The notes under the pieces are model-generated. The model was not told where the DNA came from and searched no databases. It saw nothing but the letters and a program-made list of their open reading frames with translations. Of a stretch of 64,000 nt of DNA, positions 2,841 through 35,793 are shown in pieces (the stretch's first letter is position 1; each line of letters starts with the position of its first letter). Source of the stretch: Cyanophora paradoxa CCMP329 (taxonomy: Eukaryota; Plantae; Glaucophyta). Location: positions 1 through 64,000 of the forward strand of contig QPMI01000427.1 in assembly GCA_004431415.1 (NCBI GenBank), given 5' to 3'. Both the position numbers and the translations under genes were made by a program.

Positions 2841-2930
2841 ACAAAACAGAATCGATTCTAATACTGATTGAATTTCTTATTTTTTAAAAACCTTACTGTA
2901 AATGGTTTGTGTGACAGCTGTGACACCTTT

Positions 2931-3050
2931 TTAATTGAGTGTGACGCTGTGACGCCTGTGACGCCTACTTTCAAACTTTTTAAAATTTCAAAAATCTACA
3001 AACCTCTGAAAACAGGTGTCACAGGCGTCACAGGCGTCACACCCAATTAA
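2931..3050. repeat. Iteron-containing inverted repeat (candidate replication origin of element A)
   Basis: Arms ttaattgagtgtgacgctgtgacgcctgtgacgcctactttca (2931-2973) and its near-perfect reverse complement (3007-3050), each with three TGTGACGCC-type units. Lies about 90 bp after the helicase stop. Confidence 0.8.
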
Positions 3051-3439: not shown

Positions 3440-6400
3440 ATGCCCCGCCAATCCAATAGAATCATCAAAGAGAAGAAAAACGAAATACTCGGTCTTTTAG
3501 GAACCCTTTTAGTCACTGGTGATATTACAGAATTTGAATATGATCGCCAGGCAGCAGTCTTGGACAGAAGACCAAGATTATCTCAACTCACAGAAATTAC
3601 AAATCGCCTCTATGATCGTTTTGAGAAAATGGAGGAATTCAGGGATGAAGGTTTAAGGTTGGGAACAATTGAACCCGAGATTGAAGATGGGGAAGCCATG
3701 AACAAAGCATATTCCTGGTTAACCTATCGAGCCAGAGGGGAGGTTATCCAAGATGGGATTGAATTCTTGGAGAGAATTGCACCTACTCTACCTCAGAGAC
3801 TCAGACAGAAACTCCAAGACCTGAGAGCAATTAAAACTCGGTTGACCTTCATTTGTAAATTCACCAAAGTGAGTGATCCCAGGGTGTGGATCACGAAATT
3901 CATTTACAGTGATTACTTTGTCATCACAAGATCACGAAATATTGATGTTGAACTGCGAAATGCCCTTCAATCCATGCAGGAGCAGATGATGCAGGTGGAC
4001 AGTTACAGACTGGATCGCATTGAGATGCTGAGAGTGGTAATAATGTCTTATGCTCCTGTGGGTGGTTGCTTCTTCTCAACACCTGAGTGGATTGGATCAA
4101 AGAGAGCAACTGTGAATGTGAAGAATATTGATGGTCAAGACTGCTTCAAGTATGCAATCTTGGCTTACCTGCACCGAAATGATATTAATAAACACAAGAG
4201 CAATGAACCCAGCCAGTATAGAAGATGGTTAAACGAACTCAATTTCGAAGGCATCCAGTTTCCAGTTGCCTGTGATGCAGAGGTTATTGATCGATTTGAG
4301 GAGCAGAACCCTGAACTGAGTATCAACATTTATGGTGCAGATAATCAAGCACAGTGTTTCTATCCTCTCCATCAATCCAGCAACCCCAGGAGAAAGACCA
4401 AGATTAACCTTTTATTAATCGAAAACGAAGAGGATGATAGAGGGCATTATATCACCATCATGTCTCTGAGTAGACTTCTGAAAACCACCTTTGATAAAGC
4501 CCATGATGGTCGCATTTATTACTGTGAGACCTGTCTGTCTCGTTTCAGAACTCAGGAGAAGCTGGATGTTCATATAGAAGCGAATCGCTGCATTGATTGG
4601 AGGGAGAGCAAAGGTAAATGCCCGAAATCTGGAAGTCACATTGCATTTGGGCTTCAACACCTTCGCAAAACTGTGTGGCTTCCCACTATCTGCTATGTAA
4701 AAATGGACAGTCACTCGGTTCCAATTGATGAGAACCGCAGTAAAAGAGAGGTCAAATCGGTTTCTTTAACAGTTGTGATGGGGGATAAGGTGATCTCTCA
4801 TTATTTCGAGGGATCAGATCCACTTGGTGCTCTGTTTACCACTCTCACAGAGATCAGACCCCAAGTAATCCGCACTCTATTCACCAATATTCCAATGCAC
4901 CCACTCACAGAGGAGCAGAAAGCACAATACAAGATCACTAAACACTGTTATATCTGTGCTGAACGATTTACCCATGAGAATTTCCCAGTGAGAGACCACT
5001 GTCATCAATCAGGAGCATTTATTGGGAAAGCATGCCGAAATTGCAACCTCCACAGGAGAATCTCAAAGCAAACCAAGGTAGCAATTGTGGTGGATCACAT
5101 GGATGAATGTGGACACGAAATATTCCGCAAAATTGCACAGCAAGATGATAAACTTCGTGTTGAGATCCTGAGCAAGAATTTCGACCAATACCTCTCCCTG
5201 CAATGGGGCATGTGGAAATTCATAGATGCTTCGCACTTCATGGACTTCCAGGCAGTGGATGCAAGTGATCTAATGGGTAAATTCCAGACTTTCCGAGAAT
5301 TGGCGTTCTCACAATATGGATTGGATCCTGCTCATTATGTTTCGGCTCCTGGATTATCCTGGGATGCAATGCTAATTTATACCAGAGCAAAGATTGAGCA
5401 GATCAGTGATGTAGGGCAATACGAATTTATTGAGAGGGCAATTCGAGGTGGGTTTGCTACAATGCCTACTCGATATGCAAAGGTGGAAAACCCAGATGAC
5501 CATATAGTTCTCTTGGATGCAAATAATCTGTATGGTTATGCTCTCAGTCAAGAACTGCCCACTGGCGATTTTCGGTGGGAAGATGTCACAGAGGCACTTA
5601 AAGAGACCCCTGGACGAAGTGCCTTTATTGAAGTAGACCTGGAATACCCACAAACTCTCACAGATCATTACGATTTTCCACTTGTAGTGAATAAAGAACA
5701 AATCACCACCGAAATGCTGGGTGAGTATCAACGAAAACTACTGGATATCACAGGTGAGAAGATAAGCAAAGACCCCAAACTCACAGCAACATTCACACCC
5801 AAAAACAACTATGTGATCTCCCAACCTCTCTTGGTCTATCTTGTGAGCAAAGGTATTATAATTAAGAAGGTTCACAGGGTTCTCTCATTTGCAACCTCTG
5901 CATTCATGAAGAGTTATATTGATCTAAATACGAAACTGAGGCGCCAATCTATGTCCAGATTCGAGAGTGACTTCTTTAAGTTAATGAACAATGCAATCTA
6001 TGGTAAATGCCTCGAATCATGCAGGGGTCGATCTGTGGTGAAGATTGCTAATAGTGAGAAACTCTGCAAGAAATATGCTGCAAGTCCACTCATCAAGGCG
6101 ACCAATGTATTAAACGAAAATGCTGTTGCCTTTGAGATGTATTCCAAGCATGTTCACTTAGATAAACCAGTTGCAATTGGGGCTTTTGTGCTGGATTTTG
6201 CGAAACTCCATAATAGCAGGTTCTTTTATGATGTGGTGAGGAGAACTTGGGAAACAGCAGAGCTACTATTCCATGATACAGATTCTTTCTGTCTACTGCT
6301 GCATACCAATGATCTAAATAATGAGATGAAGCGAATTTCTGAACACCTGGATTGCAGTAATTATGATCCTGCTCACCCTCTCTTTGATAGGAGCAATCGT

Positions 6401-6721
6401 TTGATTCCAGGTAAATATAAAAACGAGTTTCCCAATGCAAAGATTGTGGAGTATGTAGGTCTGAGATCGAAACTCTATGCTTTCAGAACTGAGACCTTTG
6501 ACAAAATAAAAATGTCTGGAACCTCCTCAAAAGAGGTTTACTTTGATGATTTCAAGAGATGCCTGTTTGAAGGCATCACCAAAACAGTAGCAGTAGTAAA
6601 CAAGCGAAGGCAAGACCACAACCTATATGATTTGGAGAGCAGAAGGGTGGCTCTAAACCAACTCGATAGCAAAAGGAAGATATTAGACGATGGAATTCAC
6701 AGCATTCCATTTGGGCTCTAA
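3440..6721 (+). CDS. polB: Protein-primed family B DNA polymerase (Polinton/PLV type; TP-vOTU-ZnF-EndoVII-like insertion-Pol)
   Basis: Intact 1093-aa ORF. Pol motifs LLDANNLYGYAL, KLMNNAIYGK, FHDTDS, GLRSKLYAF; OTU-like DCFKYAI...GHY; C2H2 YCETCL...H; EndoVII-like CYIC...VRDHCH..G.....C..CN. Confidence 0.95.
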   Translation: MPRQSNRIIKEKKNEILGLLGTLLVTGDITEFEYDRQAAVLDRRPRLSQLTEITNRLYDRFEKMEEFRDEGLRLGTIEPEIEDGEAMNKAYSWLTYRARGEVIQDGIEFLERIAPTLPQRLRQKLQDLRAIKTRLTFICKFTKVSDPRVWITKFIYSDYFVITRSRNIDVELRNALQSMQEQMMQVDSYRLDRIEMLRVVIMSYAPVGGCFFSTPEWIGSKRATVNVKNIDGQDCFKYAILAYLHRNDINKHKSNEPSQYRRWLNELNFEGIQFPVACDAEVIDRFEEQNPELSINIYGADNQAQCFYPLHQSSNPRRKTKINLLLIENEEDDRGHYITIMSLSRLLKTTFDKAHDGRIYYCETCLSRFRTQEKLDVHIEANRCIDWRESKGKCPKSGSHIAFGLQHLRKTVWLPTICYVKMDSHSVPIDENRSKREVKSVSLTVVMGDKVISHYFEGSDPLGALFTTLTEIRPQVIRTLFTNIPMHPLTEEQKAQYKITKHCYICAERFTHENFPVRDHCHQSGAFIGKACRNCNLHRRISKQTKVAIVVDHMDECGHEIFRKIAQQDDKLRVEILSKNFDQYLSLQWGMWKFIDASHFMDFQAVDASDLMGKFQTFRELAFSQYGLDPAHYVSAPGLSWDAMLIYTRAKIEQISDVGQYEFIERAIRGGFATMPTRYAKVENPDDHIVLLDANNLYGYALSQELPTGDFRWEDVTEALKETPGRSAFIEVDLEYPQTLTDHYDFPLVVNKEQITTEMLGEYQRKLLDITGEKISKDPKLTATFTPKNNYVISQPLLVYLVSKGIIIKKVHRVLSFATSAFMKSYIDLNTKLRRQSMSRFESDFFKLMNNAIYGKCLESCRGRSVVKIANSEKLCKKYAASPLIKATNVLNENAVAFEMYSKHVHLDKPVAIGAFVLDFAKLHNSRFFYDVVRRTWETAELLFHDTDSFCLLLHTNDLNNEMKRISEHLDCSNYDPAHPLFDRSNRLIPGKYKNEFPNAKIVEYVGLRSKLYAFRTETFDKIKMSGTSSKEVYFDDFKRCLFEGITKTVAVVNKRRQDHNLYDLESRRVALNQLDSKRKILDDGIHSIPFGL

Positions 6722-6904
6722 TCTACTTCATTGATCTTTCTTTTTCTTTGGTTTCGCTCTCCAAGAAGTAACAAACCGCGAATTAAATGCAGCAGCCATA
6801 TACATCTTAATCCTGGATCATTGGGCTCAATTGCAAAGTAGTTGGGAATTGTGTTCTCCTTCCACACAGAGTCTTGCATTTATTATATGAGAGATAAGGT
6901 AAAG

Positions 6905-7525
6905 ATGCCTTCTACACAAATAGGATTGAGACAACCACCAAGAATTGTGAGAAAAGAGGCAATTGAAGATCGAGGGAATATTCTGCCCATCACAGTTCCA
7001 GTGGAGGAGAAGAGCAGTCGAATATTGAAAAGATCAGAGATGGTCAAGCAATTAATCCCAGAGACCCTCCCAGCTGAGACAGCACCAAAAGAGTCGAAGA
7101 TTGCTAAGAAGTTCTATGATCCCAGGACAGGCTACAAGGGATTTACTGCAATGAGACAGGAACTACCAGAGGAGAACTACAAGAAGATGAGAGAGTGGTA
7201 TGATAAGCAGGAGGTCGTCCAGATTAATGCACCCACCCTATCTCGAAAAAGAGATCCCATGATTCCAATTAGGCAACCCCTTGATACCTATGTGATTGAT
7301 CTGCTCTTCTTTCCTGCATACAAAAAGCAGAATGATGGTTATGATACATTTATGAGTGCAATGGAATCAACCCTGAGAACAGGGTTCATAATTCCAATGA
7401 GAGACAAAAGTGCTCTCACTGCTCTTGCAGCATTCAAGCAACTTGAACAGAGAGTCCCCAGACCAATTGTTCGCATTCAGAGTGACAGTGGAAGCGAGTT
7501 TACCAATGTGTTATTAGAAGAAGTG
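6905..7525 (+). pseudogene. rve (DDE) integrase, 3'-truncated
   Basis: Homologous to 8800-10242 (FYDPRTGYKG, QEVVQINAP, YVIDLLFFP, IQSDSGSEF). Similarity stops just after the second catalytic Asp, where the terminal repeat of element B begins; the catalytic Glu is missing. Confidence 0.9.
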
Positions 7526-7829
7526 GAAAACTACACATTTAATACCAAAACTACGCAACTACGCAACTTTCTGAAAAAGTTTGAGAGTAGGGGGGGAAAA
7601 AAATTAGAAAAGTGAAAAAGTTGCGTAGTTGCGTAGTTTTGGTATTAAAAGCGTAGTTTGCGGTATTAATTTGCGTAGTTTAACATAGGTAGTTGAGTAG
7701 TTTAAAGTAGTTTTTATTAATTATAAAGTAGTTTATTATTTATCTTATTGTTATCAGTCTGAGACTCTATGAAAATCGATTGACCTTAGTGTGAAACAGT
7801 GCGCCCCGCCCACTATGCAAGATACATGC
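7526..7829 (+). repeat. Left terminal inverted repeat (probably truncated on its outer side)
   Basis: Reverse complement of 30735-31038 by visual alignment (gaaaactacacatttaataccaaaac...cactatgcaagatacatgc). Confidence 0.92.
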
Positions 7830-8139: not shown

Positions 8140-8225
8140 GTGACAGGGGGGATACCGGTTAAGGTGACAGAACGTGACAGGGGGGATACCGGTTAAGGTG
8201 ACAGAACGTGACAGGGGGGATACCG
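8140..8225 (+). repeat. 34-bp tandem repeat (2.5 copies)
   Basis: gtgacaggggggataccggttaaggtgacagaac units start at 8140, 8174 and 8208. Confidence 0.9.
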
Positions 8226-8378
8226 TAAAGGTGGCATTTTGTGGACATTTGTGGACATCGGGGCTACCGGGTTTGTGGTCATTTTGTGGACAAATTGCGA
8301 ACAAAAACTTGAATGCATATATATGTGTATATGACTGACCAGCCGCTGAGCGACTGACCGGCTTGCAAGTTGCAATTT

Positions 8379-8432
8379 CCCGAGTTCCGAGTCCCGAGTC
8401 CCGAGTCCCGAGTCCCGAGTCCCGAGTCCCGA
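8379..8432 (+). repeat. Heptamer tandem repeat (CCCGAGT)n
   Basis: About 7 consecutive CCCGAGT units. Confidence 0.9.
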
Positions 8433-8799: not shown

Positions 8800-10242
8800 C
8801 TACTTGCGTGGTCTCAGAGTCGCTTTTCGATCGCCATTAGCTACCGGCGCTACCGTTGCTACTTTTCTACTACTTCTTAATGTAGCTTTGGTTTCCGGCG
8901 CTTTGTAGCTCTCAGTTTGATTAGAGAACGACTTATACCATCGTTGGCTATTCACTCCGCCGGACAGCTTAGGCTCGGCGGCTGTTACTAGCCGCTGTAA
9001 TTCTTTATTTACTCGTTTCTCTTTTTGCACGCGATCCTCTAATAGAGTGCCTTGCGGCACAGTCGCGGCGGCTTCTATGCCCTCTCTACGCAATTGCGCA
9101 TCGACGCGCGCCTCGTCCTTTGCCGCCTCTAATGCATCTACTGTGGGCGCCATTAGGTAATCGACCGCCTGAACCGGTAAAAGCTCGTGGAAGGCAAAGC
9201 GACCCTCTACGCGATTGCCGTCCGGATCAGTTAGCATAAACTTATAGCCCTCGCGCGCGGCGACAGTATATACGATTCGGCTCCAATTGTTACCGCCCTT
9301 AGCGAATGGCGTCTTCTCGATGCGTAGCCTTACTGACATGCCCGGCTGAATCTGATCCAAATAAGCTATCGATTTCTTGAATTTCGCATCTTCTTTTTGC
9401 ACTATAAGCTTATAGTGACTCTCGTTGGTCTCGGCGGGCATATAGCCGGTCGCAGAGTGCACCGTATTATTATAATTATATTCCAGAGACGAAAGGACAT
9501 CTATAAATCGCGCCGTATTATTCGCGATGCAGTAGCTCGTGATCAGCCGCCGCATTTGCTTGTTAAATGCTTCTATGCGCCCTTGCGCGCGATGGTCGGC
9601 TGTGTCCGCTATCTGATGCTCGATAAACTGATTCTCGAAATATTTGCGCATAATATCATTGCGGAATTCGCTTCCCGCATCGCTTTGCACTTTGAAAATT
9701 GGTCTCGGCGCCTTATTTTGCAGCTGTATAAAGGCGGCTAAGGTCGACGCCGCGGACTTATCCCGCATCGGGATAATGAACCCGACCCGTAATGTGTTCT
9801 CCATAGCCGTGAGAAAAGCACTGTAATTATCATTATACTTCGAGTAAGCGGGAAAGAATAGCAGATCAATTACGTAGGTATCGAGAGGCTGTCGGATCGG
9901 TATAGCCGGGTCTCGTTTGCGGGATAGGTGCGGCGCATTAATCTGAACGACCTCTTGCCGGCTATACCACTCTTGCAATTTCTTATAATTCTCGTCGGGC
10001 AGCTCTTGCCGTAGCTTAGTGATCCCTTTGAAACCGGTTTGCGGATCGTAGAATTTACGCGCGATTTTCGATTCCTCCGGGACAGCAAGGGCTACGGGCA
10101 CGTCGCGGGGCACCAAAGCCTTTAAATCAGACCGCTTTACTATGCGGCTCTCTTTATTCTCTTTGGGCACGGGGATCGGCAATGTGCTCCCCTCTAAATC
10201 TTGCGATCGTCTTACTATTGGCGGTCTTGACATCCTTGTCAT
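8800..10242 (-). CDS. rve (DDE) integrase, Polinton type
   Basis: Triad YVIDL / QSDAGSEF / GRIEAFNK; YNNTVHSATGYMPA; C-terminal SH3-like PGMSVRLR...FAKG..NWSRIVYTV...GRFAFHELLPV; basic tail. Start chosen by homology with copy A. Confidence 0.93.
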   Translation of the reverse strand: MTRMSRPPIVRRSQDLEGSTLPIPVPKENKESRIVKRSDLKALVPRDVPVALAVPEESKIARKFYDPQTGFKGITKLRQELPDENYKKLQEWYSRQEVVQINAPHLSRKRDPAIPIRQPLDTYVIDLLFFPAYSKYNDNYSAFLTAMENTLRVGFIIPMRDKSAASTLAAFIQLQNKAPRPIFKVQSDAGSEFRNDIMRKYFENQFIEHQIADTADHRAQGRIEAFNKQMRRLITSYCIANNTARFIDVLSSLEYNYNNTVHSATGYMPAETNESHYKLIVQKEDAKFKKSIAYLDQIQPGMSVRLRIEKTPFAKGGNNWSRIVYTVAAREGYKFMLTDPDGNRVEGRFAFHELLPVQAVDYLMAPTVDALEAAKDEARVDAQLRREGIEAAATVPQGTLLEDRVQKEKRVNKELQRLVTAAEPKLSGGVNSQRWYKSFSNQTESYKAPETKATLRSSRKVATVAPVANGDRKATLRPRK

Positions 10243-11240: not shown

Positions 11241-14200
11241 CTAACAGCCGAATGGAAGGCTATGTATGCCGTCGCCTGATATGCAGCGCTTGCTATCGAA
11301 TTGGGTCAGCGCTATCCGCTTGCTCTCCAAATCATATAAGTGGTGGCATCGCCGTTGCTTGTTTACTACTGTTACTGTTTTTGTGATCCCGTCAAATAGG
11401 CAGCGCTTAAAGTCGTCGAAATGCACCTCTTTCGAGGCTGTCCCGCTCATTTTTACCTTGTCGTAGCTCTCAGTGCGGAAAGCATATAGCTTCGGTCGCA
11501 GCCCCACATACTCCACTATCTTGACGTCGGGCATCTCATTTTTATATTTACCGGGAACCATCCGGTTCTCGGGACTATAAGGGCAGTCTAAATGAGGGCT
11601 GATCGCTCGCATGCCCGCTTCCAGATCCGCGGTCTCTATATACAGACAGAACGAGTCAGTATCGTGGAACAGCAGCTGAGCTTGCGACCAGGTGGGACGG
11701 ATCACGTCGTAAAAGAAGCTATAATTATGCAGCTTCGCGGCATCCAGCACATAAGCGCCAATAGCAACCGGTTTATCGAGTTTTACGTGTTTACTATACA
11801 TTTCGAATGCAACAGCGCTTTCGTTTAATACATTCGTCGCTTTTACCAGCGGGCTCGCCGCATATTTCTTAAACAGCTTAGTGCTGTTCGCGATCTTTAC
11901 CACGGAGCGCCCGCGACACGATTCCAGGCATTTACCGTAAATAGCATTGTTCATTAATTTAAAGAAGTCGCTCTCGAATTTATTCCGGGCTTCCTTTCGC
12001 AGCTTCGTGTTCAGATCTATATAGGGCTTCATAAATGCAGCGGTTGCAAACGAGAGCACCCGGTGGATCTTAGTAACTACAATCCCCTTTTTTACCATAT
12101 AGAGCAGCATCGGCTGAGAGACCACGTAATTATATTTCGGAGTAAACGAGGCGATCAGCTTCGGATCTTTACTGAGCTTCTCGCCGCTAATCTCCAAAAG
12201 CCCACGCTGATATTTGCCGAGCATGTCCGCAGTAATTACCTCTTTACTCACGATCAGCGGGAAATCGCGATGGTCAGCCTTTAAATAGTCCGGATACGCA
12301 AGGTCGACCTCTATAAATGCACTCCGCCCTACAACCTCGGTAAAAGCTGTGCTTGTGTCGTCCCAGCGATAGTCCCCGACCGGTAAAGGCTGACTGAGCG
12401 CATAGCCATATAGGTTATTCGCATCCAATAGCACTATATGTTTATTCTCGCTATTAGCCTCGGCATATCGTGTGGGCATGGTCGCAAAGCCGCCCCTAAT
12501 TGCCCGCTCAATAAATTCGTATTGATCCGCATCGCTGATCTGTTCTATCGCGACCCTCGTATGCTTTAACATCGCGTCCCACGATAGTCCCGGTGCGCTC
12601 ACATAATGAGTCGGATCCAGACCGTATTGCTCATGGGCGAGCATACTGAATTTACCGAATTTTACCATGAGATCATTAACATCGGACGCCTGAAAATCCA
12701 TGAAATTCGAGGCGTCTATAAACTTGTAAAGTCCCCACTGTAAAGAGAGATACTCATCGAAATTCTTACTTAGGATCTCGACCCGCAGCTTGTCGTCTTG
12801 CTGTGCGATTTTCCTGAATATAGCATGCCCGCACTCGTCCATCCTATCAATGACCACGGCTACTTTCGTTTGCTTTGAGATCCTCCTATGTAAATTGCAT
12901 TTTCGGCAAGCTTTCCCTATATAATCGCCGCTTTGGTGACAGTGATCGCGCACAGGGAAGTTTTCGTGGGTAAACCGCTGATTGCATATATAGCAGTGTT
13001 TGGTGATTTTATAGGCTTGCTTTTGCGCCTCTGTGAGCGGAATCATAGGTGTATTAGTAAATAGTGTATTAAGCATCTCGCGGCACAGATCGCCTAACGT
13101 GGTAAACATCTGTCCCAGCGGATCCACGCCCTCGAATTCGTGATTTTCAACATGAGAGCCCATAACAACATTAAGTGCCACCGACTTTACCTCTCGCTTG
13201 GTTCTATTTGGTTCATTAGGAACCGGCACCGACTCCATTTCTACCTTGCAGTAACAGACAGTAGGAAGCCACACCATTTTCCTTAGGTGTTGCAGTCCGA
13301 AAGTAATAAAGCTTCCGGGCTCCGGGCATTTACCTTTACTCAGCCGCCAATCGATACAGCGATTAGAGTCGGTGTGGCTATCGAGTTTCTCCTGTGATCG
13401 GAACCGGGACAAGCAGGTTTCGCAGTAGAAAATGCGCCCGTCGTTTGCTTTATCAAAGGTGGTCTTTAAGAGGCGGCTCAGTGACATAATCGTAATATAG
13501 TGACCCTGTCCGTTTGCGTCCTCGATCAGCAGCAGGTTTACCTTCGATTTACGACGCGGATTACTTGACATGTGCAGTGGGTAAAAGGTTTGGGTCGCAT
13601 TGTCGGCGCCATATATATTAATTGACAGCTCGGGATTATTGTCCTCGAAACGATCGATTATTTGGGCATCGCAAGCCACCGGGAAAGTAATGCCTGAGAA
13701 GTCCAGCTCAGTCATCCACCGCCTATATTGGAACGGATCATTACGTTTGTGTCTGTTTATGTCGTTTCTGTGCAGCCATGCGAGGATAGCGTAATTAAAA
13801 CAGTCGTGACCATCGATATTCTTAATATTTACTGTGGCTCGCTTTAATCCAATCCATTCGGGGGTCTCAATGTAGCAGCCGCCCATCGGCGCATATGACA
13901 AAACGGCGACATGTAGCTTATCTAATTTACTGAGCCGGTAGCTGTCGACCTGTATCATCTGTTCATTCATTTGCTGAGCTACACCCACTAACTCAGTGAG
14001 AATATTGCGCGACCTTGTGATTACGAAATAATCGCTGTAAATGTGTTTAGTGATAAAAACGTTAGGATCACTCACTTTTACGTATCGGCAGATGAAAGTA
14101 AGGCGCACCTTAATAGCTTTAAGCTCGTCCAGCCTCTCTTTCAGCCGCCCAGGCAGATTTGCAGCGATGGTAGTGAGAAATTCCACCGGATCTAAGATTA

Positions 14201-14504
14201 TCTGTTCATCCGCCTTATAGCTATACCAGGCGTATGCTTTATTCATTGCGAAACCGTCGTCCTCATCGGGTTCTATGACGGCTAAGCGCCGCCCTTCGGT
14301 ATAGAAGCGCTCCACATTTTCCAGGCGATTGTAGAGCTCGTCGGCAATATTCGCAAGGTTAGCTAAGCGGGGTTTTCGATCTAAGATCGCCGCCCTCCGA
14401 TCGTATTCGGCTTCGGTGATCTCCCCAGTGACTAAAAGACTACCTAACAAGCCTAATATTTCGTCCTTTTTCTCTTTTATAAGGCGATTAGTTTGGCGGG
14501 GCAT
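11241..14504 (-). CDS. polB: Protein-primed family B DNA polymerase
   Basis: Intact 1087-aa ORF co-linear with 3440-6721: LLDANNLYGYAL, KLMNNAIYGK, FHDTDS, GLRPKLYAF, and the same OTU-like, ZnF and EndoVII-like segments. Confidence 0.95.
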   Translation of the reverse strand: MPRQTNRLIKEKKDEILGLLGSLLVTGEITEAEYDRRAAILDRKPRLANLANIADELYNRLENVERFYTEGRRLAVIEPDEDDGFAMNKAYAWYSYKADEQIILDPVEFLTTIAANLPGRLKERLDELKAIKVRLTFICRYVKVSDPNVFITKHIYSDYFVITRSRNILTELVGVAQQMNEQMIQVDSYRLSKLDKLHVAVLSYAPMGGCYIETPEWIGLKRATVNIKNIDGHDCFNYAILAWLHRNDINRHKRNDPFQYRRWMTELDFSGITFPVACDAQIIDRFEDNNPELSINIYGADNATQTFYPLHMSSNPRRKSKVNLLLIEDANGQGHYITIMSLSRLLKTTFDKANDGRIFYCETCLSRFRSQEKLDSHTDSNRCIDWRLSKGKCPEPGSFITFGLQHLRKMVWLPTVCYCKVEMESVPVPNEPNRTKREVKSVALNVVMGSHVENHEFEGVDPLGQMFTTLGDLCREMLNTLFTNTPMIPLTEAQKQAYKITKHCYICNQRFTHENFPVRDHCHQSGDYIGKACRKCNLHRRISKQTKVAVVIDRMDECGHAIFRKIAQQDDKLRVEILSKNFDEYLSLQWGLYKFIDASNFMDFQASDVNDLMVKFGKFSMLAHEQYGLDPTHYVSAPGLSWDAMLKHTRVAIEQISDADQYEFIERAIRGGFATMPTRYAEANSENKHIVLLDANNLYGYALSQPLPVGDYRWDDTSTAFTEVVGRSAFIEVDLAYPDYLKADHRDFPLIVSKEVITADMLGKYQRGLLEISGEKLSKDPKLIASFTPKYNYVVSQPMLLYMVKKGIVVTKIHRVLSFATAAFMKPYIDLNTKLRKEARNKFESDFFKLMNNAIYGKCLESCRGRSVVKIANSTKLFKKYAASPLVKATNVLNESAVAFEMYSKHVKLDKPVAIGAYVLDAAKLHNYSFFYDVIRPTWSQAQLLFHDTDSFCLYIETADLEAGMRAISPHLDCPYSPENRMVPGKYKNEMPDVKIVEYVGLRPKLYAFRTESYDKVKMSGTASKEVHFDDFKRCLFDGITKTVTVVNKQRRCHHLYDLESKRIALTQFDSKRCISGDGIHSLPFGC

Positions 14505-15182: not shown

Positions 15183-15330
15183 AGGTAGGCTTATATACCT
15201 TTGTCAAATTTTGAGAATGGCACGATATATAGTATACAAAATAATAAACTACTTAATTAATATAATAAACTACATGAAACTACTTGACTTTCCTTGCAAA
15301 ACTACGCAACTTGAAACCAAAACTACGCAC

Positions 15331-15441
15331 TTAATACCAAAACTACGCAACTACGCAACTTTTGCGCTTTTCAGAATTTTTGCCGCCCCGACCTTCAAAC
15401 CTTTTGCAGAAAGTTGCGTAGTTGCGTAGTTTTGGTATTAA
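15331..15441. repeat. Iteron-containing inverted repeat (candidate internal replication origin of element B)
   Basis: Perfect 32-bp arms ttaataccaaaactacgcaactacgcaacttt (15331-15362) and aaagttgcgtagttgcgtagttttggtattaa (15410-15441). Further AACTAC(GC) units occur at 15248-15330 and 15442-15515. Lies about 90 bp after the helicase stop. Confidence 0.85.
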
Positions 15442-15533
15442 ATGCGTAGTTTCCGGTATTAAATTGCGTAGCTTCGCTATGTAGTCGCGTAGTTACTAAA
15501 AACTGATGTAGTTAATGATTGTTTGGATGTCGT

Positions 15534-17948
15534 TTACGCTTCTATATCGTCCTCATCTTCGTCTTCGAACTGTGTCTTGGCGATCTTAGTGAGCCCCTTA
15601 TAAACTCGCTTCGACTTCCCTTTAATTGTCGTCACAGTCGATTCAATCTTGAATGTTTCGAGCACTTTGTTACTGATAGTGCGAGTGGTAACCTTTGTCT
15701 TGATATCGTAGCTTCGCATCATTTCCGCGCAAGCTTTGAATACCTCATCACAGGCAACATGGGCACCCTTTTCCTCTGACAGCTTGTAGTTTTCGCGCAG
15801 ATAGGAACCCAACTTATCGCTGTCGTCGAGATATTTGGCGCTATGCTCGATGACAGATTGCGGCGGGTTTTGCAGGATCTCTTTTACTTTGCCAGTAGCG
15901 AGCATATCGATGAGAATCTGAATATTTGCCCGCTTGTATTCATTTTTCTCGTCGCCCTCAAACATTTCCATGAGAGTTTCGTCCGCTTTCTTCTCTCCGG
16001 CTTTGGGATTAGGTGAGTAAACAGAGCGGAATGGGATCGATCGGAACCGACGCTTAATAGCTTTGTCGGGCTTTTCGATTTCCAGATTATTGTTGCACAG
16101 GATCACCATAGTAAACCGAGGCTTGAAATCAATAGGATCCTTGAAAAGTCCTCGGGCTGTGCAGAGCTCGCCACCTGTCAGTGTCTTCATCATACCGCAT
16201 AGAAGCTTGTCGCCATCATTAGGTTCGTTTGCATGGGTGAGCCGGACACCTTGCTTATTAGCAAGCTCGGGAATCGGGCTATTTGCTTTGTGGACTTGTG
16301 TGAGCAAAGTAATGCTAATCGGGCGAGCATAATCGCCGAATGTCTCTTGCATAAACGTTTCAATCACACTCTTTCCATTAGCACCGACACCTGTGAATAG
16401 ATAGAACGTTTGCAGGTCGGTTTTACCTGTGAGTGCATATGCATAGAGGCTGATCAGGTAATTGTAGAGTTCCATATCTCCGCCACAGATATCCAAATAA
16501 ATGTCTTTCAGCCTTTTAACCTTTGCCTCATCAACTTCCTCGCAGTAATCAAAGCCGACAGTCTTGCTCACCATATCTTCCGTCGTCCCCTTGCGGAAAG
16601 TCATATTATTTAGATCAAACACGCCATTAGTAAACCCCACAATATTGGGAACTGTGTCCAGAGTCGCCATAAAGTCATCGTCTTGTAGCTGTGTGATAAT
16701 ATGCGGTTCCAGCGACTTTTGATACGGTGTATTCTGAATCCTCTTGTGAATTGCCAGCAACATATTGGCGCTCTTCTCAGCCTTTTCCTTCACAAGGTCG
16801 TCTCCACTCGCCCTGAGAGCATTGGAAAGATGATGTCCCGCCCTTCTAGAAAACCATGGTGCAATGTGCTCAGGTATCTTAGAGAGTATGGACTTGTCCG
16901 TTTTATCATACTTCCAAATACCATTTTTGGAGTTAAGGTTAAACCAGACGTTATTTGAATATTTCGTGGTCGCTTTCAGGATCTTGGCGCAGATAATTGC
17001 AACAGGATAATGGGCGCCTTCAACTGAAACGGTCTTGTCAATGAGAGTATTAATTTCTAAATGGTGCTTCTCTTCCTCGGTCAGCTCTATGTTAACAGAG
17101 AACTCTTTCGGCTCGCAGTTCTCGCTATAACTCTTCACAATATACTCGTTATAATTGCCATCTCGCTTTTTCTTCACCCACCAGTTATTGGAATCGTGGG
17201 ATTCATCGCAGCAGGGGCACAGGAACCCCTTGTTAGCCGAATTGAAGTCAAAGCCCTCATCGCGGCGTGCATAGATGTTTGGGAATAGGAACCCCATGCC
17301 ACACAGTCCGGCAATAATAGCAGCTTCGGTATTATCCTTGCCTGAATTTCCCGCTTTCGGCTGTGGATTATAGACATGCTTGTAATCGTAGTTCTCGATA
17401 ATCCATTTACGGAAAGCGTCGGAGGGCTCATTAAACTTGCACGACGATGCCCACGGCTTAATTACCCAGGTCTTGTTAGGGCTTGGGCATACATTGAGAA
17501 TTCCAGAGGTGCCAGTGCCAGTGATGGTTTTGAGGTCGACCTTCTTGTATCCATTAAACGCCGGTGCCCGATCTATGATTTTCAGCTTATCGAACTCATC
17601 AGGGCGTCGAAAGAATACATGGTAGCCCTTTCGAGTTTTTTCGAGTGGCTGATGGGCATCGAAATCATCGGGAAACATCTCAACGAATTTCTGATACGTT
17701 TCCTCATCGTCGAAATCGACGACCATCATCGAATTCGACAGCAGAATGCCCCAATTAGTGAACTGATTGGACTTAAAGGCTTCATCATATCGTTCCCAGT
17801 TCCATTTACCGCCTTTATGTCCGTAGAAGGGCTCCTTTACCTCGTCTTTCATGGGAATAATCGTGTTTTTCGACAAGGTCTCATCGCCACGCAGCCAGTC
17901 AGCGAGCTCTTGGAGTAAAGTCTTTTGTTTCAACGTCATCTTCGCCAT
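15534..17948 (-). CDS. Primase-polymerase (AEP/PrimPol) fused to Zn-binding, D5_N and SF3 helicase domains
   Basis: WGILLSNSMMVVDFDD and EKTRKGYHVFF (AEP); CPCCDESHDSNN; GFTNGVFDL (D5_N); Walker A TGVGANGKS; ANEP; MKTLTGGELCTARGLF; LCNN; AIKRR. Confidence 0.93.
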   Translation of the reverse strand: MAKMTLKQKTLLQELADWLRGDETLSKNTIIPMKDEVKEPFYGHKGGKWNWERYDEAFKSNQFTNWGILLSNSMMVVDFDDEETYQKFVEMFPDDFDAHQPLEKTRKGYHVFFRRPDEFDKLKIIDRAPAFNGYKKVDLKTITGTGTSGILNVCPSPNKTWVIKPWASSCKFNEPSDAFRKWIIENYDYKHVYNPQPKAGNSGKDNTEAAIIAGLCGMGFLFPNIYARRDEGFDFNSANKGFLCPCCDESHDSNNWWVKKKRDGNYNEYIVKSYSENCEPKEFSVNIELTEEEKHHLEINTLIDKTVSVEGAHYPVAIICAKILKATTKYSNNVWFNLNSKNGIWKYDKTDKSILSKIPEHIAPWFSRRAGHHLSNALRASGDDLVKEKAEKSANMLLAIHKRIQNTPYQKSLEPHIITQLQDDDFMATLDTVPNIVGFTNGVFDLNNMTFRKGTTEDMVSKTVGFDYCEEVDEAKVKRLKDIYLDICGGDMELYNYLISLYAYALTGKTDLQTFYLFTGVGANGKSVIETFMQETFGDYARPISITLLTQVHKANSPIPELANKQGVRLTHANEPNDGDKLLCGMMKTLTGGELCTARGLFKDPIDFKPRFTMVILCNNNLEIEKPDKAIKRRFRSIPFRSVYSPNPKAGEKKADETLMEMFEGDEKNEYKRANIQILIDMLATGKVKEILQNPPQSVIEHSAKYLDDSDKLGSYLRENYKLSEEKGAHVACDEVFKACAEMMRSYDIKTKVTTRTISNKVLETFKIESTVTTIKGKSKRVYKGLTKIAKTQFEDEDEDDIEA

Positions 17949-19812: not shown

Positions 19813-20724
19813 TCAAAATTTACCCAATTTCTTTGCAAATTTTGGGCGGCGCTTTTCTTGGTATGCCAGCAATAGATTGGGGTCTTTAAGTAGGTCGGCT
19901 TCGATTATCCTTTTGGTGGATCGCTTTAAGGTTGCGACGTTTCCACTCACAGGTTTCGTAATATCGGTGGTTTGGGGTTGGTCGCCATTTACCGCGCCCG
20001 ACGTCGGTTTTACCGACTGTTTACCAGCGGTCTTTATGTCGTCCGCCGCTTTTTTAAAGAAGCGCTTGAATTTATATTCGTCGGGCACCGGATCCGCTTT
20101 GCCAACAGAGAATTCCAGGCTATATTTCGCATTGTTTACCACGATCACCTGATAGCTGTGACTGTATTCGGTCATCACCTTCTCGAACCAGCGCTTTTCG
20201 TATGGATTAAACTCGTCCTCGGCGCTCTCCATCTCTTTTCTATTGGGCAATGAGAACAGGAATATATATTCGGCGTTTACTCTGAGTGTCGGCGAAATTT
20301 TGGTGAGTTTTTGCGAGCAGATCCAGCAGCTCACAAACAGATGGCGTCCAGCCGTGAAAATACGATTTAGTATAGGCTCACCCTTTCCCGCCATCGATAA
20401 ACTCGGATTATCAATAAAATCGTCCAGCACAATTAACAGGTTACCGACTTTCTCCTTTTTCTTGATCCTCTCCTTGCGTTTCTCTATTATATTGTCGATC
20501 AGCTTATGGTCGAAATCCTCATACAGATACGATGTGACATTGTCGTATTGATGATTCCAGATCGTGGAGGCGAATATCATCACCGAATCGATCTTGTCCT
20601 CGTTGTGGTAAAGCAGGTATTTCAAAAAGACTGACTTCCCAGTCGCGGTTTTACCTACAAACAGTGCGCGACATGGAAACTCTAAGCTTCCCGGGTCAAA
20701 CTCACTCAGATCTTGTATATCCAT
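19813..20724 (-). CDS. A32-like (FtsK/HerA family) genome packaging ATPase
   Basis: Walker A LFVGKTATGKS, Walker B LLIVLDDF, GRHLFVSCWICSQ, PTLRVNAEY. Likely start MDIQDL at 20724. Confidence 0.93.
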   Translation of the reverse strand: MDIQDLSEFDPGSLEFPCRALFVGKTATGKSVFLKYLLYHNEDKIDSVMIFASTIWNHQYDNVTSYLYEDFDHKLIDNIIEKRKERIKKKEKVGNLLIVLDDFIDNPSLSMAGKGEPILNRIFTAGRHLFVSCWICSQKLTKISPTLRVNAEYIFLFSLPNRKEMESAEDEFNPYEKRWFEKVMTEYSHSYQVIVVNNAKYSLEFSVGKADPVPDEYKFKRFFKKAADDIKTAGKQSVKPTSGAVNGDQPQTTDITKPVSGNVATLKRSTKRIIEADLLKDPNLLLAYQEKRRPKFAKKLGKF

Positions 20725-20770
20725 TTCCCTTATAAGAAACATATAAAAATTACGAAACGCGACAGCCCGA

Positions 20771-22219
20771 TTAAGCGCTGATGCGAGACAAGCCGTTGGC
20801 ATTCATTACAAGAATATTGTGGCAGTAAGCCGAGATCTGAACACCGACCTTTGTCCAGGTGGCGAGGGGTGTGCCATTGGGTGTGAGGATTAGGAAGCTC
20901 GACGCTGATTGCGTTAGATCGACGTAGCCAGTCGCCTTCTCACCTTTGAGTGCCGCTTTACCATCGAGAGCAAAGCAGAAGCCAGTGTAAATGGGGCGCT
21001 TGTTGCTATCGATCCAGTTAGTCATCTTGAATTTATCGGCGAGCTCCATAGCCGCGGATTGCAGCGGGACACCAGTGTTAGAATATAGGTAATTGTTGTT
21101 ATTTAGAACTTGCATCACGACATTATCATCGAAGGCAAGGGTGCGGACAGTAGAGTGCCCTCCTTTATTATCGCCGAGTGTGTTTTCGTCGCGAACCTTG
21201 ACAACAAGTGCGTAAACAAGTCCAGAAATTTGAGATAGCGACAGGCGGAGACCAGAGCCGAGAGCAAGACCGGTATAATCCGCAAACTGAATATCAGTGT
21301 AGGGGATGGCGATGCCAGAGGTCTTAACACGAGTAATGATTTCGCCCATCGTTTCCTCATCGATGTTAACAGCGTCCATAACAATACGAGGGGTCGTCAT
21401 TTCCAGATTCGCAAGTGCAGGTGTAGGTGTGAGAGCCGCACTATCGAAAATCGCAGTGGCACCCGAGTGAGCTAAGGTCTTAATATTTCCGAAAGCAGCC
21501 GCTTGAGCAAGCGTTGTCTCGCCATCAGTAGAATTGGTCGCAGTAATTGCAGCAGCGTTATTCTGAGCGTAAACGCCAGGAACCGCCGCAGTTTCGAGCA
21601 GCGCAGGGGTTTGGAAATATACTTCGACCGCGATTTCGGATGGGAGCGCACCGATGGGCACGCCAGCATCGAGGAAGCTCGGAATTCGCATGGTAAAAAT
21701 GCCGCCAGCTTGGTTGCCGCCCTCTACCTTCGGTCCGAGATGCAGCCCATGCTTGCGCTTCTTTTGGTCGAATTCAGCCGGAGTGTTAGCCAGGAAAGCG
21801 TAATCTACCAGGCGCTCAGCCGGAATAATTTGCTCATACGACCCGTATTTAATGCTGACTCGCTGAACAAACGAGCCAGGAAGCCCGCGGACGAATCCAG
21901 TGTTGAATAGATCAGCCGAGCAGTCAGCAGAGGTCTTGGCGATGGCAGTTAGCGCCTTCGCCGACGGGATGGTAACTTGGAGGCTAATACCATTGCACCA
22001 ATTGTAGCGAGGGAGATAGAAGACCACACGAGTGGTAGCACCAGTAGAGGAGAACAGATTGCCGGGATCCGCAATTGGGAGCACCTCCACACGAGAAGGC
22101 TTGAATTGTTTGTCCACACCCACGATAAATCCGCGATCCAAAAGCATGCTCTTGTAATCCTCCGGGGTTTCGAGGACGGATTTGAGCGTGAGGCGGCTAA
22201 GCGAGGTCGTGGGATCCAT
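20771..22219 (-). CDS. Probable double jelly-roll major capsid protein
   Basis: 482 aa, beta-rich, next to the ATPase. Strand patterns VVFYLPR..ISLQVTIP, FVQRVSIKYG, RIPSF...PIGAL..IAVEVYF, GYVDL and C-terminal ISAYCHNILVMNANG are typical of DJR MCPs. Confidence 0.8.
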   Translation of the reverse strand: MDPTTSLSRLTLKSVLETPEDYKSMLLDRGFIVGVDKQFKPSRVEVLPIADPGNLFSSTGATTRVVFYLPRYNWCNGISLQVTIPSAKALTAIAKTSADCSADLFNTGFVRGLPGSFVQRVSIKYGSYEQIIPAERLVDYAFLANTPAEFDQKKRKHGLHLGPKVEGGNQAGGIFTMRIPSFLDAGVPIGALPSEIAVEVYFQTPALLETAAVPGVYAQNNAAAITATNSTDGETTLAQAAAFGNIKTLAHSGATAIFDSAALTPTPALANLEMTTPRIVMDAVNIDEETMGEIITRVKTSGIAIPYTDIQFADYTGLALGSGLRLSLSQISGLVYALVVKVRDENTLGDNKGGHSTVRTLAFDDNVVMQVLNNNNYLYSNTGVPLQSAAMELADKFKMTNWIDSNKRPIYTGFCFALDGKAALKGEKATGYVDLTQSASSFLILTPNGTPLATWTKVGVQISAYCHNILVMNANGLSRISA

Positions 22220-24559: not shown

Positions 24560-27500
24560 ATGAGTATCACGAATCTCCCCTTTATCACTCGGGAAACCTT
24601 GTATTTGGATGACGGTTTCGAGCTCAGCAGTAACATTACCGCTTCCAATGTGACCATATCTTCGAACCTTGTGGTAAAAGACTTTCTATTAAATCAGAGT
24701 AACCTTGAATATATTGATATCACCAGCAATCTCCCTTTTACCTATGGCACTGATAACTCAGCCCTCGTAATATATCATGGGGCTCACCTGTTGCATTCTT
24801 TGGCAGCAATTTCCCCACAGTGAGAACCTTTCAGCACGAAATCAATAAAGCCCGCCCCATCCCACTGACAGCTGTCGTCGAATGGGATCCTGTTAAATAT
24901 TCGCAGAGAATCACAAGCAATATCACTCTGACCCGACCGCATTTAATTGATGTCATGGGGGTCGACTTGTAAAGGAGTTTTATAGTGAGCGATTCACAAG
25001 AAACGAGCGAGATGTAGCCCAGGATCTCGAAATTTCGGGTTTATCAATTGCTACCGCAGCAAACACGGCAGGGCTCGCTGTTTTAACAGGTGCAATCACC
25101 ATCACTGATGCGATCATGTATTTATCCCGCGATTTGGTGCCTTTGCTCGATCATCAATTTAATCTCGGGCAATCTAACACTGATGCTGTTAAGAAATGGC
25201 TCAATGTGTATGCCTATGATGGGTGGTTTGATGACTTGCACACGACTTACCTTTATAGCACGACCTCAAAAACAAGTAACATAATCTTGCCTTTCAATCA
25301 GTCAGTCCGACCCAGTGATTTACCCACTGATGAGAGAGCTCTGATCAGCTATAATGACTTTAACAGCAATCTTTCCCGCTCAGTTTCGCGAACTGAGACC
25401 TACGAGGTCACAGGTTACCCTCAAAAGATCGCAGGGCTCGAAGTCTATGTGGTGTATGCTGATAGCCCGACCTATACATTTACATGGGGTCAATTGGGTG
25501 TCACAGGTTTCGAGGCTTTACCTACTGTGACCTTGGTCGATCATACAGTTTACTATAACAATGTTACTTACACTAATGAATCTAATAAAGCATATGTCCA
25601 TAATATCACCTCCACAGGGTTCCAGGTTTCGTTTATCAATCTTAGTAATTTAATTACCATCCGAAACTCTTCACTAAACAGCATAGCAAATGTGAGCTTC
25701 ACTCTTACTATCAATTATGTCACCCCTGTCTTCGATAGCAAACCCAGAGTAAAGATTTACCGCGATTTACAGGGTAGCAATATCGTGCCCTTCTCACAGA
25801 ATTTGGATCTTGGGGCGAACTCTTTAAGGTGGAACACAGTTTATTCTTTGAATGCAAACACCTGTAATATTGTGGTCGCAGGATCATCGGCTACTATTGG
25901 AGAACTGACCGCCCCTTTTAGAAAGGAGTTTCTCAGAGAACTGTATATAACAAAGTCTGATTTACCAGATGCTATTTCGTTGGTGCTCTCCCCCACTCCC
26001 AGTATATCCTACCACAATGTGAAAGACACAAGTAATGTAGTGCAGAGGGGAAGCAAAGTATTCCAGGCATCCGAGATATCAGCATCAACATATAGATACC
26101 TTGCAGGGGTTCCAGCGAATTTTAATTTCACATTTGAGACACCTTTTGTTTCCCCTCCTACTATTGAAATAACAGATACGAATTTGTATGTGATCAATAA
26201 TGGATCATCTACCTCTCTCAACAATGCGCCCCTTGGTTACTCTCCATTTGTCGCCACAAATATAACAACAACCGGCTTTACACTTGTCGGAAATGCAACA
26301 GTGACCTATGCTCTGTCAGGATATCCTGTTGGATTATATTTTGCGAAGTTTAATCTTACTCCAACCCCACCTGTGTCCCTTTCTCCTCCCTTTACTATCA
26401 GTTGGAAGGCAACAGGAACTATTCCACGATTCGACCCCGAAGATCGCTTGAAAATTAGGTATCCTCTCGATGTGACCGACCTCCATACTACGAGAATAAA
26501 TGGGCAGAATTTCGTATTTAATGGAACCAATGCGACTCTGATCAATAACAGTGTCACAAATAATTACTTTTTCGATTCTCGATATATTAATACTTGCAAC
26601 ATTGTCATACAGAACACGTTTGAGAATCGCAGTAAGACCTTAACAGTCACCTTGCCCACTCACTCGAATGTCTCAGATGGATTTCACTATTATCTTTTCA
26701 ATCGCAATTACACCTCCTATATTCCATATCCTTCTGAGACTGTCAACATGAGCTATCCCAGAGTCACCCTAACATCGACCAATGCTGACTTCTTTGGATC
26801 CACCGACTTTATGACCTTCTTTGCTTTCACATCCTCTACTGATGGGCTCTTAGTTTATTACACTTTCAGGTATGATGCTGTTTGGACTCAGCTTGACAGC
26901 CACCCAAATACAGATGTCATCGAAGTGGGCGATAAGAAATATATTAAAACCGCTTCCCCATGGGTGTGCACTGTCCGGCTCGATGATAGATACACTCCCA
27001 ACCTAAATAACATTGGAATGCACTCGACATGTAATATTTATGTGCAAGGTGCAATTTCGGCTACCAAATATTTCGAGGGTGGGAACTGTGATGCAGCCCA
27101 TAGGTTGCTATCGCGAAATGGGCTCTTTGAGTCATTCAGTGGGACGGCTCTACCGCCCTTTATCAGGGACACAGTCTATGATACTACATGCAATATTTGG
27201 GTGTGCCGATCTGTGAGCAATCCGCCTGTGACAAAGGAATTATATAAATACCTGTCAGATACCTATGGTGCAATTACAGGGTCTTCAACAGGAAATCCAG
27301 CAACGGCTCCCATCGTGTTTGCGAATGCATACACAGCGCCGACATCATTAGCAGGGTCGACAGAACCGCCACCAAACGATCCCAATCCAAACACACCTAA
27401 GCCAGATCCCGATTCGAAAAATCCCCCTACAACTAATCCAGATCCAAACACGACACCTAATAATCCCTCAAATCCTACAAACCAGCCCGTGGGTCGTGGT

Positions 27501-27878
27501 GTCGATCCAGGACTGATAGTTATTGCTGTGGTTGTGCCTGTTATTACTTTATTCGGGGGTATACTTGCATACAAATTTCGGGCTTTATGTTGTGCATGTT
27601 GTGATCGGGTCATTGCAGGTGCAGGGAATAAATATTCGGCACCAGAGATGAATGTGACCCAAACAGCCGAAGGAGATGTGGGGTTAGAGGTGAGGTCAGC
27701 CGAGGGGAATGGTCTAAGTGTTGTGAGAACTGATCAACCACCAGCAAGTAGGGCAGCACCCAAAAAATCGCGAGCAGAACGAAGGGCTGAATCAATAATA
27801 AAAGATAATGCAGACTTTATGGCGGAAATGGCACAGCGAGAGGGCAGAACATACGAGCTTCTCCCGATGCGACCTTAA
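24560..27878 (+). CDS. Large fibre/spike-like protein with C-terminal transmembrane segment (5' part frameshifted; main ORF 25116-27878)
   Basis: SN/CN-type repeats and Thr/Asn-rich beta segments (FTFETPFVSPPTI...ISWKATG), a Pro/Asn linker, hydrophobic GLIVIAVVVPVITLFGGILAY, then CCACC. The reading frame is open upstream of 25116 to about 24975; 24560-24823 may be the true N-terminus or a separate gene. Confidence 0.7.
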
Positions 27879-27907
27879 TTTTTGTAGAATGCCTTAATAG
27901 AGAAATA

Positions 27908-29370: not shown

Positions 29371-29391
29371 TAAGTAAAGAACAATCAAAAG

Positions 29392-30734: not shown

Positions 30735-31038
30735 GCATGTATCTTGCATAGTGGGCGGGGCGCACTGTTTCACACTAAGGTCAATCGATTTTCATAGAGT
30801 CTCAGACTGATAACAATAAGATAAATAATAAACTACTTTATAATTAATAAAAACTACTTTAAACTACTCAACTACCTATGTTAAACTACGCAAATTAATA
30901 CCGCAAACTACGCTTTTAATACCAAAACTACGCAACTACGCAACTTTTTCACTTTTCTAATTTTTTTCCCCCCCTACTCTCAAACTTTTTCAGAAAGTTG
31001 CGTAGTTGCGTAGTTTTGGTATTAAATGTGTAGTTTTC
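30735..31038 (-). repeat. Right terminal inverted repeat (matched part)
   Basis: Reverse complement of 7526-7829. Contains the 32-bp iteron palindrome (30916-30947 / 30994-31025). GCGTAGTT motifs continue beyond 31038. Confidence 0.92.
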
Positions 31039-31122
31039 GGTATTAAAAGCGATCAGATTGCGTAGTTTTCATGCGTAGTTAATTACAGTCGCGTAGTTTC
31101 AGTGCGTAGCCGCTCAGTTTCA

Positions 31123-31200
31123 GTGCGAAACTAATGCATTTAAGTGCGAAACTCACACATTTACGTGCGAAACTCATGCATTTACGTGCGAAACTGATGC
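31123..31200 (+). repeat. 21-bp tandem repeat (about 4 copies)
   Basis: GTGCGAAACTnATGCATTTAm units start at 31123, 31144, 31165 and 31186. Confidence 0.85.
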
Positions 31201-31318
31201 CTAATTGCGTAGTTGGGCACACTCTCGATGCGCGCGAACGTTTCATGCAGCACATAGTAGTTGTTTTTTGATGAAACGGCGCGTGATCGTCGCTTTTATA
31301 TTGAAATTTCAGAACAAC

Positions 31319-35718: not shown

Positions 35719-35793
35719 TGCAAGGTATGGTTAGAAGCATGAGAGTGTGCGCTCGATTGCATTTATAATTATTTGACACTAGTTTGGGGACAG

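Follow-up and report, generated by a model that had tools for sequence, protein, structure and literature searches.

The survey of more than 20,000 integrase-linked protein-primed DNA polymerases (pPolBs) describes their Exo motifs as conserved in the sections covered here (10.1101/2023.08.22.554363). Four metal-binding carboxylates, Tyr165, and an auxiliary Lys143 make up the exonuclease site of the phi29 polymerase (PMC4974454). In that enzyme the template tunnel is built by TPR2 together with the exonuclease domain, and strand displacement is impaired when the metal site of the exonuclease is mutated (PMC6351526). Exonuclease loss going along with helicase gain is on record for mavirus and the PLVs, and from enzymes in which the domain is nearly or wholly gone—those of mavirus and the Tlr1-like type—a mutual compensation of exonuclease and helicase has been proposed (PMC11161782). 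Elsewhere, the Rep helicases of the SaPIs load themselves at opposed iterons lying directly downstream of their own gene (PMC9371898), and a pPolB accompanied by a D5 primase-helicase has been interpreted as a passing stage of replacement (10.64898/2026.07.28.741278). Exonuclease loss in pPolBs being thus already published, the case described below represents no new category, and we claim none.

The window—the whole stretch of 64,000 nucleotides of Cyanophora paradoxa DNA that was analyzed—contains in its left half, where the GC content is 40–49% against 55–79% in the host, two related virus-like elements, A and B. Element B lies between inverted repeats of 304 nt that are 100% complementary (7526–7829, bounding B on the left, and 30735–31038) and codes for an rve-type integrase (8800–10242, − strand), a pPolB of 1087 aa (11241–14504, −), an AEP (Prim-Pol) plus D5/SF3 primase-helicase (15534–17948, −), an A32-type packaging ATPase (19813–20802, −; PF04665, E 6.8e-8), and probable capsid genes. 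The integrase was recognized by a weak Pfam rve match and by tblastn matches of 20–30% in nine polinton-type loci, several of them annotated as rve, and the probable major capsid protein (482 aa; 20771–22219, −) is proposed from its size and position only, this candidate having given no Pfam or PHROG match and a poor single-sequence fold (pLDDT 33). Inverted repeats, rve integrase, pPolB, and A32 ATPase are the polinton hallmarks present in B; among the scanned ORFs of the element, those of at least 115 aa, there was no match to the Ulp1-type maturation protease of typical polintons. Element A is represented by a primase-helicase homologue (602–2829, +), a pPolB of 1093 aa with 73% identity to that of B (3440–6721, +), and an integrase with 65% identity to B's, which ends at the start of B's inverted repeat (6887–7516, +). 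The order primase-helicase, palindrome, pPolB, integrase is common to both elements. The pPolB of B was present in 20 of the 24 sequencing runs listed, which belong to one organism and 16 studies; a presumed RNA run gave two tiny contigs and was not counted as evidence of expression.

Certain features at the borders of B should also be recorded. At 7516–7530 the integrase of A stops at B's left inverted repeat, which repeat begins within a palindrome cassette, and this junction looks like a rearrangement rather than a clean insertion; one run contig carries A's integrase onward differently from the window. On the right, the copy of B's palindrome cassette extends beyond 31038, and a 50-nt inverted pair in AT-rich DNA at 31319–31626, outside the 304-nt repeat, may lie near the true right end of the element. 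Within B, at 25116–30414 (+), there are four fibre- or spike-like ORFs: one, of 920 aa, matches an H-type lectin and has a hydrophobic stretch at its C terminus, two carry repeats of PHROG 17509, and one carries a C1q domain. Adjoining B, at 34726–37352 (−), stands a series of reverse transcriptase, RNase H, and tyrosine recombinase ORFs, which we take to be a DIRS/Ngaro-type retrotransposon.

Both pPolBs are composed of a terminal protein (TP), a vOTU, a zinc finger, an exonuclease carrying an EndoVII insertion, and a polymerase, and it is the exonuclease that is collapsed. We judged its motifs by residue counts at alignment columns, loose regular expressions having given false motif calls. 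The full-length relatives keep the ExoI Asp, the ExoI Glu, the ExoIII Tyr, and the ExoIII Asp in 145 of 145 cases each, and the ExoII Asp and the Lys of KG.fPY in 144 of 145 each; in a wider set all four carboxylates occur in 243 of the 246 proteins covering the region, another 31 of the 277—A, B, and P0121 among them, trimmed by local alignment—having been left out as not covering it. The alignments place in A the ExoI remnant CYVKMDS (4691–4711, +), with Lys on the Asp column and Asp on the Glu column, and the ExoII remnant VVDHMDECG (5087–5113, +), from which the catalytic Asp is absent; the corresponding stretches of B are CYCKVEM (13236–13256, −), where alignments and structural match put K420 on the Asp column and E422 is kept, and VIDRMDECG (12828–12854, −), likewise devoid of an Asp at the ExoII column. 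The distance from the Asp of FIDS to LDP is 32 residues in A and B versus 117–167 (median 128) in the 145 relatives, which shortening means that KG.fPY and the ExoIII Tyr have been removed. The deletion junction of A runs from FIDASHF to LDPAHY (5219–5338, +), with about 95 aa gone, and that of B, located by run contigs, model, and alignment, lies at 12603–12722 (−); the ExoIII Tyr and the auxiliary Lys motif fall within the deleted segment in both, the Lys of KG.fPY presumably being the equivalent of Lys143 of phi29.

The motif strings of the preliminary description are thus all present in the sequence, at the coordinates just listed for A and B, and its claim that the canonical exonuclease site is lost stands on these column counts and the 32-residue span. 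Its picture of a collapse at ExoI and ExoII applies to both Asp residues, but two of the four carboxylate columns are still acidic in A and B, namely the ExoI Glu column (D/E) and the ExoIII Asp column (D), the residue at the latter (D608 in B) lying at the start of the last helix in the structural model. Extra acids occur in both proteins near ExoII (D553, D556, and E557 in the numbering of B), so that A and B retain up to five acids around the site (in B: E422, D553, D556, E557, and D608). As to the register at ExoI, the Lys stands on the Asp column in the 74-row and 64-row alignments, and a 150-row alignment has gaps at that column for all five collapsed rows; the structural match to the phi29 polymerase starts at model residue 413, equal to phi29 residue 5, in three of the top five rows, which rows give range ends only, and is consistent with K420 lying on phi29 Asp12 if the match is ungapped.

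The AlphaFold model of the pPolB of B (pLDDT 89, pTM 0.82) keeps the exonuclease strands 415–458, 548–552, and 575–597, with the EndoVII inserted at about 482–545; at the deletion junction strand 593–597 passes through an 11-residue loop into helix 609–627. The central exonuclease sheet and the last helix are accordingly arranged in the model as a shell, which is predicted to survive. The top PDB matches were to the phi29 polymerase (Z 20.7, rmsd 3.1, 485 residues aligned), as against a Z of 10 to other family B enzymes; a PDB sequence search found nothing. Among viral models the best matches were bidnavirus-like and adintovirus polymerases, and the mavirus pPolB came only 41st (E 7.6e-11), which rank argues against a mavirus-type enzyme; an assignment to the mavirus-type virophages was rejected, the pPolB having 1087 aa and being closest to the polinton/adintovirus enzymes, and a virophage capsid Pfam match being absent. 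Model residues 88–207 match the LF/PAD fold (Z 8.4–9.5), which fold has been assigned to the terminal protein (PMC11161782), and S188, which in all three of A, B, and P0121 occupies the loop joining helix two to the final strand of the TP, is the predicted linking residue.

The remaining domains are conserved. The vOTU residues C235 and H335 are kept, and the polymerase residues D694, Y699, K849, N853, G857, D948, D950, K1005, and Y1007 (motifs A, B, C, and KxY) equal the consensus of the 145 relatives. Between motifs B and C of this phi29-like fold with TPR1 and TPR2 there are no gaps relative to those proteins; TPR2 looks complete in the model, and strand displacement may therefore survive. 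The EndoVII/HNH core, identified by Pfam and column check, has its motif HCYIC...DHCH...ACRNCN intact in A (4943–5059, +) and lies at 12882–12998 (−) in B, where C504, C507, D520, H521, H523, C533, C536, and N537—the DH..H, the Asn, and the four zinc ligands—are kept. PF02945 is matched above its cut-off in P0121 and P0199 and below it in A and B; in each of the four collapsed types examined the catalytic and zinc columns are preserved. When A is compared with B, EndoVII is moreover the best-conserved block (84% identity, pN 0.132); between B and P0121 its identity is 52%, near that of the polymerase domain (49%). In the relatives with an intact exonuclease, the catalytic His and Asn of EndoVII are each found in 139 of 145. 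The columns hence agree with the earlier statement that the polymerase, OTU-like, and EndoVII-like motifs are intact; the further suggestion that the exonuclease now serves as a scaffold for EndoVII is plausible, but not specific, EndoVII being equally conserved in the intact relatives and the shell probably serving in addition to brace the TPR2 template tunnel.

Regarding the age and number of the losses, a search of 1.84 billion representatives returned P0121, which is 46% identical over its full length, has the same 32-residue span as A and B, and carries Q, K, G, and N at the four carboxylate columns, thus keeping none of the four. A tree of 24 rows, selected out of 132, on vOTU and polymerase columns, i.e., outside the exonuclease, unites A, B, and P0121 in one clade (100/100), which grouping, together with the shared span, supports the view that the loss predates the split of A and B. 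Two further proteins of 28% identity, P0199 and P0270, have a span of 44 residues, with Ala for the ExoI Asp and Pro for the ExoIII Asp. P0199 stood apart from the clade of A, B, and P0121 in every tree and in 200 of 200 trees of a still unsettled bootstrap; the rare residues that it has in common with them are not in excess (6, a level reached by 34 of the 145 intact relatives); a single clade of the collapsed proteins was not rejected by the AU test (p 0.84, against a poorly searched free tree). Judged from these sequences, the collapse in P0199 and P0270 is probably independent of that in A, B, and P0121, and the AU test also allows one origin. The state is rare, these five proteins being the only cases among those examined: viral contigs yielded no loci of the collapsed clade with A+B, A+B+P0121, the capsid candidate, or P0270 as queries; none of the 40 loci from another viral scan and a metagenome scan was collapsed (21 of them cover all eight exonuclease columns); and a profile search with the five proteins returned four others of 1167–1293 aa, none collapsed to judge by its listed length. 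The full-length relative P0244 has Ala for the ExoII Asp and no deletion, and is possibly an early step of exonuclease loss. With regard to the mutator lineage hypothesized in the preliminary description, the clade of A, B, and P0121 is no outlier in protein branch length: its path amounts to about 1.2 changes per column, within the range of the relatives' end branches (median 1.01, up to 1.58), which figure does not measure mutation rate.

Next to the polymerase gene, B carries the primase-helicase mentioned above, an open frame of 804 aa assigned by Pfam, with the Walker A motif GVGANGKS. The homologue in A is broken in the window's copy, which breaks are absent from the deepest contigs of three DNA runs, and aligns with B's in pieces at 24–43% identity. 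This value lies well below those of the pPolBs (73%) and the integrases (65%), and therefore the partnership is loose or the helicase has been swapped. Just downstream of B's helicase gene, at 15300–15494, eight copies of AACTACGC are disposed four facing four, a predicted helicase-loading origin by analogy with published ones (PMC9371898). A repeat search located two further such iteron palindromes, one of six copies within the left inverted repeat (7549–7680) and one of ten copies in and beyond the right one (30884–31214); the 24 copies of AACTACGC all lie in these three clusters, whereas the chance mean was 1.2 and none of 100 shuffles did as well. Just behind A's helicase gene, at 2918–3033, five of the 13 copies of CTGTGAC are arranged three facing two around an AT-rich core. 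In both elements the helicase gene is hence immediately followed by short repeats in opposed orientation, which is the layout of the SaPIs, satellites that use the host polymerase. An internal copy of B's terminal palindrome cassette, about 85% similar, occupies 15239–15494, with the pPolB gene on one side and the helicase gene on the other, which gives B the look of a composite of a pPolB-integrase module and a helicase-capsid module. At the left end of B, 8140–8230 and 8386–8432 hold short tandem repeats, some with GTGAC units like A's iteron.

The helicase of B gave no match in any of 40 loci with related pPolBs, and among 54 ORFs of 13 IMG/VR loci with an intact exonuclease we found no primase-helicase or SF1 Pfam domain, one generic AAA apart; these control loci cover 74–100% of their contigs, three being under 10 kb, and 31 of the 54 ORFs are without Pfam match. 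A helicase search gave no match assignable to the contigs of P0121 or P0199; the link between helicase and pPolB is that seen in A and B, which are related and share a host. Among named proteins, those closest to the primase-helicase of B are P0281 and P0282 from the green alga Tetrabaena socialis, and the Logan protein P0280 is 35% identical to it over 93% of its length. Two contigs of related loci deserve mention: one, with a polinton-type pPolB whose exonuclease is intact, carries a Sputnik-type virophage capsid gene (L007:10170-12044), and another, polinton-like, a Tet/JBP oxygenase-like ORF below the Pfam cut-off (L004:5397-6161).

Of the known enzymes, the EndoVII-bearing polinton/adintovirus-type pPolBs, presumably "group 2," are like those of A and B in domain order, in the motifs DANNLY, KLMNN, and DTDS, and in the EndoVII insertion, at about 30% identity; they differ in having kept the exonuclease (ExoI and ExoIII in 145 of 145, ExoII in 144 of 145) and in having no helicase beside them in 13 loci. 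With mavirus the elements share the TP-vOTU-polymerase layout, the lost exonuclease, a separate gene for an SF3 helicase, an rve integrase, and inverted repeats, but the mavirus pPolB is of about 617 aa with a mere remnant of the exonuclease, while here a polinton-type protein of 1090 aa has an exonuclease sheet and EndoVII, and the helicase, unlike that of mavirus, is fused to an AEP primase (PMC11161782). The Tlr1-like fusions of pPolB and SF1 helicase in PLVs and transpovirons similarly pair exonuclease loss with a helicase; in them, however, the exonuclease is absent and the helicase fused, whereas A and B retain its fold and encode the SF3 helicase in a gene of its own, joined to an AEP (PMC11161782). 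The Pri-Rep genes of SaPIs are likewise followed by opposed short iterons around a central spacer; yet SaPIs are bacterial satellites, while here a eukaryotic element has its own pPolB and palindrome copies at its inverted repeats, its iteron origin being a prediction by analogy (PMC9371898). Finally, the Halocafeteria virophages also combine a pPolB with a D5 primase-helicase and have palindromes within terminal repeats, which pair was read as a transient replacement, the state of the exonuclease being undiscussed in the sections covered (10.64898/2026.07.28.741278). The preliminary description missed the adjoining primase-helicase and iteron palindrome as well as the published precedent for exonuclease loss with a helicase (PMC11161782). 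Searching the open literature, we came upon no account of a collapsed exonuclease in a polinton pPolB with EndoVII, nor of the whole combination seen here, a full-size enzyme that retains the exonuclease fold and has an AEP-SF3 helicase and an iteron palindrome next to it, nor is such a collapsed EndoVII-bearing polinton case described in the portions covered of PMC12721341, PMC13215967, and PMC10120064. The coupling of exonuclease and helicase being known from mavirus and the Tlr1-like enzymes, A and B look like a further, independent, and less complete case.

With the ExoI and ExoII Asp and some 95 residues lost, proofreading is likely absent and reliance on a helicase for unwinding likely. 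The explanation that we prefer, and regard as fairly probable, is that of a protein-primed polymerase whose exonuclease, so reduced, likely does not proofread, and which likely depends on the adjoining AEP-SF3 primase-helicase. In such a scheme the pPolB would prime synthesis with its own TP; the exonuclease shell would be retained for walling the TPR2 template tunnel and for carrying EndoVII; strand displacement would be weakened, as in the exonuclease-site mutants of phi29; and the AEP-SF3 helicase would load itself at the iteron palindromes and unwind the DNA ahead of the pPolB. The lack of 3′-5′ exonuclease activity is, on the residues lost, highly probable, and that the helicase binds its cognate iterons—in B at both inverted repeats—and offsets a weakened strand displacement is, by analogy with the systems cited, marginally probable.

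Pseudogene decay or an assembly artefact as the source of the collapse might be thought of because A's helicase is broken in the window's copy and A's integrase truncated. Both pPolB frames are open, however; over 1084 codons A and B differ by a pS of 0.86, at which synonymous sites are saturated, and a pN of 0.185, with a pN of 0.217 in the exonuclease remnant itself, by which measures the whole pPolB is shown to be under purifying selection; P0121, only 46% identical, has a deletion of equal length; and contigs of four of four runs bridge B's junction without a gap, so that its deletion is not an assembly slip. We consequently rejected decay and artefact as extremely improbable, in keeping with the initial view that the loss is no decay. 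That the site has instead been remodelled into an active exonuclease, built on E422, D608, and the acids newly present near ExoII, is improbable as well: those acids are conserved between A and B in a fold predicted with high confidence, but a Lys stands on the column of the bridging ExoI Asp, the Tyr and Lys helpers named in phi29 are deleted, and the sister protein P0121 has none of the four carboxylates.

Editing might otherwise have been taken over by the EndoVII insertion, through cleavage of branched or mismatched DNA beside the polymerase, so that the element would be no mutator. T4 endonuclease VII does cut branched and mismatched DNA, and the catalytic and zinc columns are intact in the four collapsed types within what is the most conserved block of A and B; but the same conservation holds where the exonuclease is kept, which points to another, older task, e.g., resolving branches or processing ends, and the identity between B and P0121 is about that of the polymerase domain, all of which leaves this alternative with little likelihood. 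The main rival of our preferred explanation regards the two replication genes as independent modules: with the exonuclease dead, the helicase would be no partner of the pPolB, the AEP-SF3 protein—an AEP being able to polymerize on its own—would have an origin of its own and replicate the element from there, and the pPolB-integrase pair would be a co-resident module, acting alone or being replaced. The far greater divergence of the helicases, the position of B's internal palindrome copy between the two modules, and the apparent completeness of TPR2 in the model speak for it, as does the transient state proposed for the Halocafeteria elements with two replicases (10.64898/2026.07.28.741278). Since the pPolBs have nevertheless stayed under purifying selection across saturated synonymous divergence, one gene order is found in both elements, and no helicase genes turned up beside exonuclease-intact relatives (the 40 related loci, and the 54 ORFs of 13 IMG/VR loci), we consider these independent modules unlikely, if much less so than the other alternatives.

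Returning to a polymerase that depends on its neighbouring helicase, the existence of close relatives with an intact exonuclease makes the proposed compensation between exonuclease and helicase directly testable: the fidelity and strand displacement of a single natural enzyme, in the presence or absence of the helicase that its element encodes, can be set against those of an intact relative. The collapsed pPolB also offers a clean background for the role of the EndoVII insertion. Such work would show how a DNA element of 23 kb can do without canonical proofreading and still persist. More tentatively, and as a possibility that we hold to be somewhat doubtful, A and B may represent a hybrid replisome midway in a trade of exonuclease for helicase, with a protein-primed polymerase that has a hollowed exonuclease shell and starts at termini bearing SaPI-like iteron origins, with a self-loading AEP-SF3 helicase loaded at these, and with a collapse that would have occurred at least twice in the EndoVII-bearing polinton polymerases; if that were true, the loss of proofreading would be a recurrent route in this polymerase family, and not an oddity of mavirus.
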